DNA of 27,590 bases from NCBI GenBank assembly GCA_017501055.1, contig JAFVXP010000069.1, positions 1 to 27,590 on the forward strand, written 5' to 3'. This document shows, one piece after another, positions 22,972 through 27,590 of this stretch. The stretch is from Clostridia bacterium (GTDB lineage: Bacteria > Bacillota > Clostridia > Oscillospirales > CAG-382). The stretch's first letter is position 1. Every line of letters begins with the position of its first letter. Below the pieces are notes generated by a model. It did no database searches. It saw only the letters and a list, made by a program, of their open reading frames with translations, and was not told where the DNA came from. The position numbers were made by a program, and so were the translations under genes.

Positions 22972-24903
22972 TTATCTCAACTTTTCATTAATCTCTGTCG
23001 TAAACTTAACTATCATATCCGAAACGGACATAACGCCAAGGTCTTCACCCTTACGGTTACGAACCGAAACAGCACCCTGCTCCTGTTCCTTTGCGCCGAC
23101 GATGAGCATATAGGGTATCTTGTTAAGCTGTGCTTCACGGATACGCTTGCCCATGGTTTCGTTACGGTCGTCAAGATCAACACGTATACCGCAAGCCTCC
23201 ATCTTCTTTGCAACCTCTGCCGCATAACCGTTCATATCTGCATTGACGGGAATAACGGTTGCCTGCGTGGGAGAGAGCCACATCGGGAGCGCACCTGCAT
23301 ATTTTTCAAGAAGGAGCGCAAGCGTGCGTTCATAGCAACCCATGGAGGTGCGGTGGATTATATAAGGATTAACAAGCTGGTTGTTAGAATCGACGTATTC
23401 CATACCGAACTTCTTTGCAAGAAGCATATCTATCTGGATAGTAACACTGGTGTCTTCCTTGCCGAAAACGTTCTTGCACTGAATATCAAGCTTCGGACCG
23501 TAGAATGCCGCTTCGTCGATACCGATTTCGTAATTTATGCCGTTTTCGTCAAGCAATCTGCCCATAATCTCCTGAGCTTCGTTCCACTGTTCGGGAGTAC
23601 CCTCGTATTTGTCGGTACGCTTGGGGTCCCATTGTGAGAAACGGAAGGTGCAGTCTTCCCAAAGACCGAGAGTTTCAAGACAATGCTGTGCAAGGTCGAT
23701 ACAGCCCTTAAATTCTTCTTCAAGCTGGTCGGGACGGAGAACAAGGTGTCCTTCGGAAATAGTGAACTGACGGACACGGATAAGACCGTGCATTTCACCG
23801 CTGTCCTCATTACGGAAAAGCGTTGAGGTCTCGCCCAAGCGCATGGGAAGATCACGGTAGGAACGGCGCTTGTTGAGGAATACTTGGTATTGGAACGGGC
23901 AGGTCATGGGACGGAGCGCAAAGCATTCCTTGGTTTCGTCGTCTGCATCGCCCATAATGAACATACCGTCACGGTAGTGGTCCCAGTGTCCCGAGATCTT
24001 ATAAAGCTCTCTCTTTGCCATAAGAGGAGTTTTTGTGAGAAGATAACCTCGTTTTTGTTCTTCGTCTTCGATCCATCTCTGCATAAGCTGGATAACTCTT
24101 GCGCCCTTGGGCATAAGAATGGGAAGACCCTGACCGATAACGTCAACGGTGGTGAAATATTCAAGCTCTCTGCCGATCTTGTTGTGGTCACGCTTTCTTG
24201 CTTCTTCAAGCTGTGCGATGTGTGCGTTAAGCTCGTCCTTGCTGGGGAATGCCGCACCGTAAACACGCTGAAGCTGTTTGTTGTTCTGGTCGCCCTTCCA
24301 GTATGCACCCGTGCACTGCATAAGCTTTATAGCTTTAACTGCGCCGGTAGAGAAGAGGTGAGGACCTGCGCAAAGGTCAACGAATTCACCCTGACGGTAG
24401 AAACTGATAACAGCGTCCTCGGGGAGCTCGTTTATAAGCTGAACCTTATAGGGTTCCTCCTTTTCTTCCATAAGTGCAATCGCTTCGTTTCTCGGAAGCT
24501 CAAAGCGTTCGATAAGAAGGTTTTCACGGACGATCTTCTTCATTTCGTCCTCGAGTTTTTTCAAAACCTCGGGAGTGAAGGGGATCTCGCTGTCAAAATC
24601 ATAATAAAAACCGCTTTCGATTGCAGGTCCGATAGTAAGCTTTGTTTCGGGATAAAGACGCTTAACTGCCTGCGCAAGAATATGTGCGGCGGTGTGACGG
24701 AAGACCTGCTTTCCTTCCGCCTCGGCAAAGGTGAGAAGCGCAATATCGTCGCCTTCCTTGACAGCGGTGTTAAGCGCACAAACGGCACCGTTCACCTTTG
24801 CGGCGATAACGGCACGAGAGATAAGCTCTGCTTCCTTTGCGGCTTCGTATACGGTATTTGCGTTTTCAACGCTCACTTGATTACCGTTAATGATAAGGTT
24901 CAT
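22972..24903 (-). CDS. thrS: Threonine--tRNA ligase
   Basis: TGS domain, FRHTAAHILAQAV, DLCAGPH, RDHNKIG, LRPMTCP, GLIRVRQF, AAFYGPKLD, IIHR, anticodon-binding domain; 643 aa. Confidence 0.98.
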   Translation of the reverse strand: MNLIINGNQVSVENANTVYEAAKEAELISRAVIAAKVNGAVCALNTAVKEGDDIALLTFAEAEGKQVFRHTAAHILAQAVKRLYPETKLTIGPAIESGFYYDFDSEIPFTPEVLKKLEDEMKKIVRENLLIERFELPRNEAIALMEEKEEPYKVQLINELPEDAVISFYRQGEFVDLCAGPHLFSTGAVKAIKLMQCTGAYWKGDQNNKQLQRVYGAAFPSKDELNAHIAQLEEARKRDHNKIGRELEYFTTVDVIGQGLPILMPKGARVIQLMQRWIEDEEQKRGYLLTKTPLMAKRELYKISGHWDHYRDGMFIMGDADDETKECFALRPMTCPFQYQVFLNKRRSYRDLPMRLGETSTLFRNEDSGEMHGLIRVRQFTISEGHLVLRPDQLEEEFKGCIDLAQHCLETLGLWEDCTFRFSQWDPKRTDKYEGTPEQWNEAQEIMGRLLDENGINYEIGIDEAAFYGPKLDIQCKNVFGKEDTSVTIQIDMLLAKKFGMEYVDSNNQLVNPYIIHRTSMGCYERTLALLLEKYAGALPMWLSPTQATVIPVNADMNGYAAEVAKKMEACGIRVDLDDRNETMGKRIREAQLNKIPYMLIVGAKEQEQGAVSVRNRKGEDLGVMSVSDMIVKFTTEINEKLR

Positions 24904-24921: not shown

Positions 24922-25125
24922 AAAAAAGCCGACACATTACCGAAAGTTCGGCAAAATGTCGGGGTGCAGATAAGATCCACACGGTTCCACCCGTGATTTA
25001 ACTTAAAAATTAAATTGTCGGCGCAAAACAGGCGGTATCTGTTACAGCGTATCTTGTTGCAATTCCAGCCCAATTGTTGCAACTCTCTGGAAAGCCGTTT
25101 TGTAATAGACGTGTTCTGTTTCTTG
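24922..25125 (-). ncRNA. T-box riboswitch (Thr)
   Basis: Stem I with CAGAGAG and GGCTGGAA loops; candidate specifier ACC at 25036-25034; antiterminator CGGG-UGGAACC-GUG...CAC-CCCG (bulge 24989-24983); overlapping terminator CCGACA..UGUCGG-U6. 5' boundary approximate. Confidence 0.9.
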
Positions 25126-25141
25126 ATGCTCCTTAAGGTTG

Positions 25142-25254: not shown

Positions 25255-25710
25255 ATGAAATGTCCTTTGTGTAACCACGCAGAAAGCAAGGTTATAGACT
25301 CTCGTCCTTCCTCGGACGGAAGCTCGATACGCCGCCGCAGAGAGTGTCTTGAATGTCAAAAACGCTTCACGACCTATGAAAATATCGAAACGCTCCCTCT
25401 TATAGTAATCAAGAAGGATATGTCCCGTGAGACCTTCGACAGAAACAAGATATTAAACAGCATTATCCGTGCCTGCGATAAACGTCAGGTAACCCTTTCC
25501 CAAATGGACAACCTTGTTTCCGAAATAGAGCTTTCTCTCCAAAATTCGCTCCAAAACGAAATCACCTCCGACCGTATAGGTGAATTGGTTATGGAAAAAT
25601 TAAAAGAGCTTGACGAGGTTGCATATATCCGCTTTGCTTCGGTCTACCGTCAGTTTAAAGACATCGGAGCATTTATGGAAGAGCTTCAAAAGCTCCTTGC
25701 AGAAAAATAA
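25255..25710 (+). CDS. nrdR: Transcriptional repressor NrdR
   Basis: [35 protein letters not shown] cone, [15 protein letters not shown]. Confidence 0.98.
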
Positions 25711-25802: not shown

Positions 25803-25831
25803 TTGACTTTATCGAATTAACGTGATATAAT
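25803..25831 (+). promoter_or_regulatory. sigma-A promoter for Tyr-rich leader
   Basis: TTGACT(25803-08)-N17-TATAAT(25826-31) with TG extension. Confidence 0.85.
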
Positions 25832-25865: not shown

Positions 25866-25940
25866 ATGAAAAATAAGTTTTATTATTACTATTATTATTT
25901 TAAAAAGGGCTGCCCGTCTTATGTGATGACCAAGGCATAA
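25866..25940 (+). CDS. Putative Tyr-rich leader peptide MKNKFYYYYYYFKKGCPSYVMTKA
   Basis: SD AAGGAG 25850-55, ATG 25866, six consecutive Tyr codons 25881-98 (TAT TAT TAC TAT TAT TAT), TAA 25938-40; below the ORF-track size limit. Confidence 0.75.
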   Translation: MKNKFYYYYYYFKKGCPSYVMTKA

Positions 25941-25965
25941 ACGCTTTGGGTTGAATAAAACGGCA

Positions 25966-26011
25966 GTCCGTATTTGCTATGCTTTAAGGCAGAATGCAGT
26001 ACGGATTTTTT
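25966..26011 (+). terminator. Attenuator terminator
   Basis: GTCCGTA..TGC...GCA.TACGGAT followed by T6; left arm overlaps the predicted antiterminator strand 25960-69. Confidence 0.72.
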
Positions 26012-26061
26012 GTTTGCATAAAATAAAGAAAGGAAAATCGCTTTAATCCGTTAATTTACTA

Positions 26062-26089
26062 TTGAAATTTGTCGAAAAAGTAGTATAAT
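26062..26089 (+). promoter_or_regulatory. Possible second promoter for symporter gene
   Basis: TTGAAA-N16-TATAAT, downstream of the attenuator terminator. Confidence 0.45.
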
Positions 26090-26147: not shown

Positions 26148-27590
26148 ATGACGAGAGAACAAATAATCTGGCTTACGATAGGCGTTTATGCTGTGTTTAT
26201 ATTCGTGGTCGGATTCCTATCAAACAGCAAATCAAAAAATATGGGTGATTTCACCGTCGGCGGTCGAAACGCAGGCGCTTGGATGTCTGCCTTTTCGTAC
26301 GGAACGGCGTATTTCTCCGCAGTAATGTTTATCGGTTATGCAGGCGGTACGGGCTGGAAATACGGTATATGGGGTGTTCTGCCCGGTATCGGAAACGCAA
26401 TAATCGGCTCGCTTTTCGCTTGGATGGTGCTTGCAAAGCGCACACGCTCCGTTACGAGAGAAAAGGGAATAACCTCGATGCCTCAGTTCTTTGAAAAATG
26501 CTATGGCTCGAGAGCAATGAAGCTCTTTTCCGCAATCGTAATATTCGTTTTCCTCTTGCCCTATTCGGCATCGGTTTATAAAGGACTTACAAGCGTTTGC
26601 TCGGTTCTTTTGGGTATTGACGAATGGATCTGTATGCTTGTTATCGCTGTTGCGGGCGCACTTATCGTTGTCGCAGGCGGATATATGGCGGCACTCAAGG
26701 CGGATTTCATTCAGGGTGCGGTAATGCTCGTCGGCGTGATCGTGCTTATCTTCTCGGTAATGAACAGCGATAACGTCGGCGGTCTGACAGAAGGATTTAA
26801 GAATATCGCTTCCGAAACGAGCAAATTAAGTCTTAACGCATTCGACCATATCGGCCTTTGGGCAACCGTGCTTATGACCTCGTTCGGTACTTGGGGCTTG
26901 CCTCAGATGATACATAAATATTACGGTATCCGTGATGATAAAGAGGTTTCCAGAGGAACGGTAATCTCCACGGTATTCGCATTTGTCGTTGCAGGCGGCG
27001 GTTATCTTATCGGCTCGCTTTCGCATCTCTTCTTTAATGAACTTCCCGAGGGCGGAACCGACTATCTTGTTCCGAACCTTCTTATAAAATCGGGTGTTTC
27101 GGATATACTTGTCGGCGTTATCCTCGTATTGCTTATTGCGGCAAGCGTTTCCACGCTTTCCTCGGTAACCATAACGGCGGCTTCTACGTTGACGATGGAT
27201 ATCGTTCAGGACAGATTTATCAAAGACAAGGAAAAGGATATCTCTCTTCTTACAAAAATCGTTTGCGTTGCATTCGTTATGCTTTCCTTCCTTATCGCTT
27301 GGAAGGGAACGGGCACACCGATCCTTGATATGATGAGCTATTCATGGGGCATAATCTCGGGTAGCTTCCTCGCACCCTACGCCGTTGCGCTTTATTATAA
27401 GAAGACCACAAAGGTCGGCGCTTGGGCAGGAATAATTTGCGGTTTTGCTATCGCATTGCCTCCTCTTGTTGCAAAGCTTTCCGGCTCTGCGTTTGCTCTC
27501 GGCAAATTCGGACCCTTAAGCGGCATGGGACCGCATTTCGCTTGTCTTGCTATGGCTGTTTCGCTTTTGGTGGTTATAGCTGTCAGCACA
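26148..27590 (+). CDS. Sodium:solute symporter (SSS/PutP-PanF family), 3' truncated by window
   Basis: Open frame of 481 codons to the window end: MTREQIIWLTIGVYAVFIFVVG..DFTVGGRNAGAWMSAFSYGTAYFSAVMFIGYAG..SFGTWGLPQMIHKYY..LIAASVSTLSS. Missing from the ORF track because no stop lies in the window. SD weak. Confidence 0.93.
   Translation, partial: MTREQIIWLTIGVYAVFIFVVGFLSNSKSKNMGDFTVGGRNAGAWMSAFSYGTAYFSAVMFIGYAGGTGWKYGIWGVLPGIGNAIIGSLFAWMVLAKRTRSVTREKGITSMPQFFEKCYGSRAMKLFSAIVIFVFLLPYSASVYKGLTSVCSVLLGIDEWICMLVIAVAGALIVVAGGYMAALKADFIQGAVMLVGVIVLIFSVMNSDNVGGLTEGFKNIASETSKLSLNAFDHIGLWATVLMTSFGTWGLPQMIHKYYGIRDDKEVSRGTVISTVFAFVVAGGGYLIGSLSHLFFNELPEGGTDYLVPNLLIKSGVSDILVGVILVLLIAASVSTLSSVTITAASTLTMDIVQDRFIKDKEKDISLLTKIVCVAFVMLSFLIAWKGTGTPILDMMSYSWGIISGSFLAPYAVALYYKKTTKVGAWAGIICGFAIALPPLVAKLSGSAFALGKFGPLSGMGPHFACLAMAVSLLVVIAVST

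Follow-up and report, generated by a model that had tools for sequence, protein, structure and literature searches.

A sodium:solute symporter at the head of a CoA ligase and IorAB operon in Clostridia is a candidate importer of 4-hydroxyphenylacetate

Introduction

What does the sodium:solute symporter encoded at the end of contig JAFVXP010000069.1 of a Clostridia bacterium (Oscillospirales, CAG-382; assembly GCA_017501055.1) carry, and which pathway does it serve? The contig, referred to here as the window, is a stretch of 27,590 nucleotides that was analysed as a whole and that ends within the symporter gene, downstream of a leader peptide with a run of tyrosine codons. An earlier note on this DNA proposed that the symporter imports either tyrosine or an arylacetate precursor and that it opens a tyrosine-starvation-induced operon for arylacetate salvage that continues beyond the window. 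Analysis of the remainder of the operon, of homologous loci, and of related genomes supports a link to aromatic amino acid supply. From gene context and sequence, the symporter probably imports 4-hydroxyphenylacetate, and possibly other arylacetates, for activation to the CoA thioester and reductive carboxylation to tyrosine.

That rumen and gut anaerobes can make phenylalanine, tyrosine, and tryptophan out of arylacetic acids has been recognised since the 1960s, and the reductive carboxylation of phenylacetate by rumen bacteria is the same chemistry as that proposed here. The bacterial genes for this route, above all those for the uptake step, are not pinned down in the literature that was searched. 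The symporter belongs to a subfamily annotated just as "sodium:solute symporter", and a limited literature search found no paper that assigns it a function. If borne out by experiment, an assignment would put a name to a transporter found in Faecalibacterium, Acutalibacteraceae, Oscillospiraceae, Lachnospiraceae, and even Treponema, and would give direction to IorAB and PaaK genes that look catabolic. It would also point out gut bacteria that clear 4-hydroxyphenylacetate and phenylacetate, from which p-cresol and phenylacetylglutamine are formed.

Results

The symporter is the first gene of a six-gene operon

The window (contig C30) belongs to an assembly of 1.02 Mb with 64% completeness. Another of its contigs, C94 (locus L003), overlaps window positions 26981–27590 at 98% identity, extends 16.8 kb further, and carries the final 14 codons and stop codon of the symporter gene (L003:611–652). 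The two copies differ at 14 positions in the overlap, every one of which is a third codon position; 13 of the changes are synonymous. These differences show that the symporter frame is under purifying selection and that C94 is a strain variant of the same locus. The remaining change replaces the invariant Cys373 codon with TGA in the C94 copy (L003:284–286, equivalent to window 27264–27266), which points to either a genuine nonsense allele carried by one strain or an error in base calling. Selenocysteine at this position was considered and rejected, as the assembly contains no tRNA-Sec and three near-complete genomes of the genus contain no selB match above the cut-off.

On C94, the TAA of the symporter gene abuts the ATG of a PaaK-like CoA ligase gene (TAAATG), and the two genes are predicted to be translationally coupled. 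Genes for IorA and IorB of indolepyruvate:ferredoxin oxidoreductase (IOR), a second PaaK-like ligase, and an ACT-pair protein follow (Table 1), with gaps of 3–20 nucleotides downstream of ligase 1. The best match of both ligases is to PaaK; their scores lie below the equivalog cut-off of 646 bits, and the fold family fits. The closest relative, genome G013, encodes a symporter that is 95% identical and shows an identical gene order within a single contig. The symporter gene heads a compact operon that encodes, in order, symporter, PaaK-like ligase 1, IorA, IorB, PaaK-like ligase 2, and ACT-pair protein. The earlier note had named phenylacetate-CoA ligase, iorAB, and ACT genes as those to look for after position 27590. 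All of them are present on C94, and the operon does extend beyond the window, as that note had supposed, to a terminator behind the ACT gene.

CoA ligases of two families follow the symporter

We searched 107 loci of the symporter subfamily for relatives of the ligases, IorA, IorB, and ACT protein of the window operon and determined the next gene at the 96 loci whose downstream sequence extends for 0.9 kb or more. This gene encodes a PaaK1-type ligase at 28 loci, an ANL-type AMP-forming ligase at 11, a PaaK2-type ligase at four, IorA at seven, and something else at 46; a ligase of one family or the other thus lies directly after the symporter in 43 of the 96. Because two different ligase families fill the same slot, the arrangement argues for a CoA ligase as the transporter's constant partner and, hence, for a carboxylic acid as its cargo. 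The full six-gene cluster occurs in Acutalibacteraceae, Oscillospiraceae, "Ruminococcaceae", Candidatus Fimenecus, and an assembly labelled Faecalibacterium prausnitzii (L025). Shorter versions are found in Lachnospiraceae, Hungateiclostridiaceae, Mageeibacillus, and Treponema. The suggestion in the earlier note that this subfamily neighbours paaK and ior genes holds at about half of the 96 loci; it holds as a phyletic pattern as well (see below). The neighbours of stand-alone copies (tRNA synthetases, glutamine synthetase, PAP2, a two-component system, and a LysR regulator) are uninformative.

In several clusters, a 550-residue ANL-type AMP-forming acyl-CoA ligase (PF00501 and PF13193) lies between the symporter and IorA. 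This ligase (L019:11581–13245; orthologues L136–L165) is found in 56 of 121 Clostridia genomes at 61–77% identity and has no specific name in NCBIfam. Among its 30 best loci, the symporter lies directly upstream in 12 and IorA directly downstream in 17. The ANL-type enzyme is a candidate 4-hydroxyphenylacetate-CoA ligase.

In genomes G017 and G019, nrdR, the promoter, and PaaK1 are kept at the locus and the symporter is missing from it; a paralogue of 45% identity is encoded elsewhere, behind a tyrosine T-box. This substitution suggests that the clade of the window symporter and that of the paralogue do the same job.

The symporter and IorA occur in the same genomes

The symporter (E ≤ 1e-80) and IorA (E ≤ 1e-150) were sought in 151 genomes of the order, all of which, except that of the window, are at least 90% complete. 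Both are present in 79 genomes and both absent from 59; three genomes have the symporter without IorA and ten have IorA without the symporter. In two of the three symporter-only genomes (G151 and G157), the symporter lies at a contig end, and congeners of G151 carry IorA about 3 kb away from the symporter, on the side where the G151 contig ends. Counts of symporter and IorA match within many families (6/9 and 6/9, 4/9 and 4/9, 7/8 and 7/8, 2/8 and 2/8, and so on), which implies many joint gains or losses of the two genes.

A sample of 41 genomes gave a similar picture for the ligases. All 27 relatives with the symporter also have IorA and a PaaK-type ligase, and ten genomes lack symporter, IorA, and PaaK-type ligase alike. 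Every IorA-positive genome of the sample has two ligases, PaaK2 and either PaaK1 or the ANL type. A strict module of symporter and ligase 1 was rejected, given that three genomes of the sample (G006, G028, and G032) have ligase 1 without the symporter.

Regulatory RNAs of relatives are split between tyrosine and phenylalanine

T-boxes were identified with Rfam and with a profile built from its hits. When a T-box lies directly before a subfamily member, its specifier is UAC (Tyr) in 22 of 22 cases, 14 of them in the first loci and eight among the 12 symporter–ANL ligase loci that were extended upstream. Directly before the ANL-type ligase 1, in its 30 best loci, the T-box is likewise specific for tyrosine (6/6). 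Starvation-type control of the gene set thus takes the form of a tyrosine leader in the window and of tyrosine T-boxes before all 28 of these symporter and ligase-1 homologues. T-boxes before PaaK2–ACT read UUC (Phe) in all five complete cases and in one cut by a contig end. PaaK2–ACT pairs with their own UUC T-box stand beside a symporter with a tyrosine T-box in L050 (11650–11896), L051 (11621–11868), L042 (11629–11875), L131, and L132.

These UUC T-boxes suggest that PaaK2 is a phenylacetate ligase of the phenylalanine branch and that the ACT protein belongs to the same branch. The pattern supports a split in which tyrosine governs the symporter, ligase 1, and IorAB, and phenylalanine governs PaaK2 and ACT. 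Because genes switched on by uncharged tRNA serve supply rather than degradation, we infer that the pathway runs in the biosynthetic and not the catabolic direction.

Rfam found neither a T-box nor any other known RNA before seven symporter–ANL–Ior operons. A LysR-type regulator gene is divergent from T-box-less symporter homologues on the minus strand of L040 (8964–9854), L044 (8948–9838), and L064 (8945–9838), apparently a third way of regulating this transporter.

The symporter belongs to an SSS subfamily apart from PutP, PanF, and ActP

The earlier note had read the open reading frame downstream of the leader as a member of the solute:sodium symporter (SSS) family. This assignment is confirmed by a match to Pfam SSF (PF00474, TC 2.A.21) with an E-value of 1.8e-40 and 139.5 bits against a cut-off of 22.8, which covers all 406 profile positions (1–406). 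The motifs quoted in that note, GTAYFSAV (residues 52–59) and SFGTWGLPQM (residues 245–254), are both present and are invariant in an alignment of 12 homologues at 66–92% identity. A332, S335, and T336 of the eighth core helix align with the Na2-site residues A337, S340, and T341 of PutP; they are invariant in the alignment with PutP and PanF as well as within the subfamily. The protein is therefore a probable Na+-coupled SSS transporter. Asp55, which is essential in PutP, is replaced by Tyr in the subfamily and also in PanF, and the Y-x-S-A motif in the first transmembrane helix resembles that of PanF. The nearest solved structures, those of SGLT1, vSGLT, and NIS, are distant (E-values of 1e-11 or weaker).

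By E-value, the best NCBIfam matches of the symporter are PutP (TIGR02121) and PanF (TIGR02119). Both scores fall below the equivalog cut-offs (146 versus 515.5 bits and 119 versus 328 bits, respectively), and the identity to the Escherichia coli proteins is 22% for PutP and 24% for PanF. The ActP model TIGR02711, which represents ActP/PaaL-like monocarboxylate symporters, gives 26 bits against a cut-off of 1099. PaaL probably belongs to the ActP-like branch of the SSS family. In a FastTree phylogeny of 108 subfamily members and three reference transporters only (E. coli PutP, PanF, and ActP), the subfamily is a single clade, set off by a long branch (length 1.04, SH-like support 100), and the three references each lie on separate long branches apart from it. 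By these comparisons, the symporter is not an orthologue of PutP, PanF, or ActP and represents a large, uncharacterised subfamily; it may nonetheless function like the monocarboxylate carriers of the ActP/PaaL type, though not a member of that group. More than 7,000 homologues were retrieved from a protein collection; they come from assemblies of Clostridia, Ruminococcaceae, and Eubacteriales and are named, where at all, just "sodium:solute symporter family protein". At least 600 stretches in species-representative genomes bear both motifs.

A leader peptide lies upstream of a conserved promoter

The features of the window that precede the symporter are listed in Table 1 together with the genes of the operon. 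The region begins behind nrdR, which lies outside the operon and serves as a synteny anchor within the genus (L085, L087–L089, L092, L111, and L112 have it upstream as well). By its parts, the leader is a leader-peptide transcription attenuator, with a promoter (P1), a mini-ORF that holds a regulatory codon run, alternative hairpins of which the antiterminator is our own reading, and an intrinsic terminator. Six consecutive Tyr codons occupy positions 25881–25898 and are flanked by Phe codons. The leader region folds better than shuffled sequence (z = -5.06). GGGCUGCCCGU lies inside the leader ORF just past the Tyr run, and ACGGCAGUCC overlaps the 5' arm of the terminator. This arrangement suggests a mechanism in which a ribosome stalled on the Tyr run would free GGGCUGCCCGU to pair with ACGGCAGUCC, so that the foot of the terminator stem is lost. 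A ribosome that reaches the stop codon of the leader would instead cover GGGCUGCCCGU and allow the terminator to form. Transcripts from P1 would then pass the attenuator only when charged Tyr-tRNA is scarce.

Table 1 Features of the window and of the operon on contig C94 (L003)
Feature	Position	Strand	Evidence
nrdR, synteny anchor across the genus, outside the operon	25255..25710	+	Pfam Zn_ribbon_NrdR and ATP-cone
Promoter-like site P1, TTGACT-17-TATAAT with TG, drives the leader	25803..25831	+	Scan score 11 of 12
Leader peptide ORF MKNKFYYYYYYFKKGCPSYVMTKA, 24 codons, after a Shine-Dalgarno sequence	25866..25940	+	Read from sequence
Candidate antiterminator, GGGCUGCCCGU (25907–25917) pairing with ACGGCAGUCC (25960–25969)	25907..25969	+	Own reading, 10 pairs, one bulge
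Intrinsic terminator of the leader, stem AGUCCGUA...UACGGAUU, then a U-run	25965..26011 (about)	+	Sequence and minimum-free-energy fold
Promoter-like site P2, TTGAAA-16-TATAAT	26062..26089	+	Scan score 11 of 12
Sodium:solute symporter gene, first 481 of 495 codons	26148..27590	+	ATG-started ORF, stop-free to the window end
PaaK-like ligase 1	L003:653-1975		481 bits to TIGR02155
IorA	L003:1992-3752		TIGR03336, 692 bits versus cut-off 651
IorB	L003:3764-4336		NF005325, 266 bits versus cut-off 230
PaaK-like ligase 2	L003:4340-5647		566 bits to TIGR02155
ACT-pair protein	L003:5668-6099		PF19571
Operon terminator	after L003:6099		Hairpin, then seven T

A second promoter-like site, P2, sits between the leader terminator and the symporter ORF and was not seen in the earlier note. 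It corresponds to a block, CTTTAAT..N..CTATTGCAATTT..N..AGTAGTATAAT, that precedes the symporter across the genus (L085–L091); the CTATTGCAATTT...AGTAGTATAAT portion also stands directly before PaaK1 in G017 and G019. Same-genus orthologues other than that of G013 (75–83% identity) show the nrdR terminator, the conserved block, and the symporter, with no leader. P2 is therefore the likely conserved promoter of the operon in this genus. Among 107 homologues inspected for an aromatic-rich leader peptide upstream, only that of G013 (L084) has one, and it differs from the window leader by a single residue; a tyrosine leader as a feature of the whole subfamily was rejected on this count. In the interval from nrdR to the symporter, Rfam detects neither a T-box nor any other known RNA, in the window or in the same-genus orthologues.

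Because the leader is confined to the window and G013 whereas the P2 block is kept across the genus, the unit of about 260 bp that comprises P1, leader, and terminator appears to be a recent addition upstream of the ancestral promoter. In this strain, the leader peptide upstream of the conserved promoter takes the place of the T-box. The operon would be expressed from P2 and, here and in G013, also from P1, so that read-through transcripts made under tyrosine starvation would probably supplement P2 output, and the leader would not be the sole control. The induction by tyrosine starvation proposed in the earlier note must accordingly be qualified in this strain, as P2 sits beyond the attenuator.

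A partly palindromic motif resembling GCTTTAATYCGKTAAT lies about 5–20 nucleotides upstream of the -35 element of P2. It is represented by GCTTTAATCCGTTAAT at about 26041–26056 of the window and is kept across the genus (L085–L091, L111, and L112). This motif could be an operator for some regulator or an UP element.

Discussion

Our analysis suggests a model in which the symporter would take up 4-hydroxyphenylacetate, and possibly other arylacetates, from the gut lumen. Ligase 1 would convert 4-hydroxyphenylacetate to its CoA thioester at the cost of ATP to AMP, and IOR, working in the reductive direction, would carboxylate the thioester to 4-hydroxyphenylpyruvate, from which a transaminase would form tyrosine. 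Ligase 2 and the ACT protein would serve a parallel branch from phenylacetate to phenylalanine. It is tempting to speculate further that the symporter and ligase 1 constitute a tyrosine-specific module for uptake and activation of 4-hydroxyphenylacetate, set on a shared IorAB core beside a phenylalanine-specific PaaK2–ACT module; the chances for and against this arrangement seem to us evenly balanced. If it is true, the subfamily would provide strict anaerobes with their first identified arylacetate transporter, and a gene set widespread in gut Clostridia would consume the precursors of p-cresol and phenylacetylglutamine when aromatic amino acids are scarce.

Several points weigh against this interpretation. 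The subfamily as a whole lacks transport and enzyme assays. Roughly half of the homologues occur as stand-alone genes, and many copies behind a tyrosine T-box are monocistronic, the usual layout of an amino-acid importer. The phyletic counts come from related genomes, which are not independent samples. Ten of the 151 genomes of the order have IorA without the symporter, and G006, G028, and G032 carry ligase 1, IorAB, and PaaK2 without it; the transporter is therefore dispensable for the pathway. Chorismate synthase is present in 30 of 31 genomes of the genus and prephenate dehydrogenase in 19 of 31, including G013, so the arylacetate route is an optional salvage beside de novo synthesis and not a replacement for it. 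With P2 downstream of the attenuator, tyrosine control of the operon may be partial. Finally, C30 and C94 were joined through 610 overlapping bases that are 98% identical, and codon 373 is a stop in the symporter copy of C94.

The earlier note had left the cargo as tyrosine or an arylacetate, and the genomic context supports a cargo of this kind; we infer the choice between the two from the following considerations. The main rival is that the symporter imports tyrosine itself and is associated with the arylacetate genes only through a common regulon for tyrosine supply. T-box control is typical of amino-acid importers, and every T-box that precedes the subfamily is specific for tyrosine. The known transporters behind tyrosine T-boxes are of the NhaC and NSS types (PMC2494555), many symporter copies are monocistronic, and PutP, an amino-acid carrier, is itself an SSS member. 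In L050 and L051, moreover, the symporter has its own tyrosine T-box, and the adjacent PaaK2–ACT pair has one for phenylalanine. A tyrosine importer would be useful in any genome, yet IorA is found in 79 of the 82 genomes with the symporter and in only ten of the 69 without it. Its apparent translational coupling to a CoA ligase in this operon, and the presence of one of two ligase families directly after it at 43 of 96 loci, would likewise be unexpected, as would, as weaker evidence, the Tyr that it shares with the carboxylate carrier PanF at the position of PutP Asp55. For these reasons, we regard import of tyrosine as unlikely.

Slightly less probable still is that the symporter imports a carboxylate for the pathway without being specific for 4-hydroxyphenylacetate. 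Its cargo could be a broad range of arylacetates, including phenylacetate and indole-3-acetate, or it could be 4-hydroxyphenyl-lactate or 4-hydroxyphenylpyruvate. IOR and PaaK-type ligases accept several aryl substrates, and a Clostridioides difficile ligase encoded beside a PFOR homologue used phenylacetate (PA), 4-hydroxyphenylacetate (HPA), and indoleacetate (IA) (PMC13285125). The operon has two ligases and serves more than one amino acid, and nothing in the symporter sequence fixes a requirement for the para-hydroxyl group. These points are countered by regulation that is confined to tyrosine in the 22 T-boxes and in the present leader; the phenylalanine signal is placed on PaaK2–ACT and not on the transporter. 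Furthermore, 2-oxo and 2-hydroxy acids need no CoA ligase, yet a ligase is the most constant neighbour.

A catabolic operon that converts aromatic amino acids to arylacetates, with the symporter importing the amino-acid fuel or handling the acid product, is very improbable. The first description of IOR was of a catabolic enzyme, and gut bacteria produce phenylacetate with related oxidoreductases (PMC10809373). However, a leader and T-boxes that act when Tyr-tRNA is uncharged are the wrong signal for tyrosine degradation, and Na+ symporters import rather than export. The described catabolic route from tyrosine to 4-hydroxyphenylacetate uses phosphotransacylase (Pta) and a kinase, and related clusters use ADP-forming ligases, so that ATP is conserved (PMC13285125); the ligases of the present operon are AMP-forming. 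Least probable of all is an ordinary proline or pantothenate symporter that merely adjoins the operon: PutP and PanF are its best NCBIfam matches, but the scores far under the cut-offs, the low identities, the fully supported separate clade, and a neighbourhood, phyletic pattern, and tyrosine regulation with no link to proline or pantothenate speak against it. Contrary to the outcome that the earlier note had said would refute it, the homologues thus group apart from PutP and PanF and have neighbours from an aromatic pathway.

The proposed uptake of 4-hydroxyphenylacetate resembles several known systems in part. PaaL of the Pseudomonas putida paa catabolon is a dedicated arylacetate permease that works with a phenylacetate-CoA ligase, and growth on phenylacetate depends on it (PMC3224230). 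PaaL acts in aerobic degradation under induction by its substrate, whereas the symporter described here would serve anaerobic assimilation and be induced by amino-acid starvation. Aryl acids feed aromatic amino-acid synthesis via IOR in Methanococcus maripaludis, according to Porat et al. as cited in PMC4162585, and the sequence of steps given there, from arylacetate through aryl-acetyl-CoA and, by IorAB, arylpyruvate to the amino acid, is that of our model. No transporter is assigned to the aryl-acid IOR route in the limited literature searched; in contrast, the present operon has a dedicated symporter and control by tRNA charging.

The acs-yjcH-actP operon of E. coli, by its annotation, shares with the present operon an SSS carboxylate symporter co-transcribed with the AMP-forming CoA ligase that activates its cargo, and both follow a scavenging logic. 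ActP is nevertheless distant, as judged by its model score and its long separate branch, and carries acetate or glycolate; its operon is without a ferredoxin oxidoreductase and without an amino-acid-sensing leader. E. coli PutP and PanF share with the symporter the Pfam family, matched over its full length, and the conserved Ala, Ser, and Thr of the Na2 site, and they differ from it in overall identity, in scores below the cut-offs, in clade, and, for PutP, in Asp55. The NhaC and NSS transporters of Firmicutes are switched on by uncharged tRNA-Tyr, as the subfamily would be, but belong to other transporter families and are presumed tyrosine carriers; a 2008 survey of T-boxes lists no SSS member among them (PMC2494555). 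New in the present work are the phyletic dependence of the symporter on IorA, the slot shared by two ligase families, the division of T-boxes between Tyr and Phe, and the leader peptide that replaces a T-box.

Two neighbouring regions merit brief mention. Upstream of nrdR, a weak T-box-like match on the minus strand (window 24957–25126; 26.5 bits against a gathering score of 93, E-value 0.0016) lies in the leader of a threonyl-tRNA synthetase gene (22972–24903, minus strand) and is probably a divergent threonine T-box. On C94, convergent with the operon on the minus strand (L003:6202–8500), lie a gene for a D-2-hydroxyacid dehydrogenase, similar to VanH and D-lactate dehydrogenase with scores below the cut-offs, and a phosphoglycerate dehydrogenase-like gene. 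Situated beside an operon that would form arylpyruvates, the 2-hydroxyacid dehydrogenase might act on aryl-lactates.

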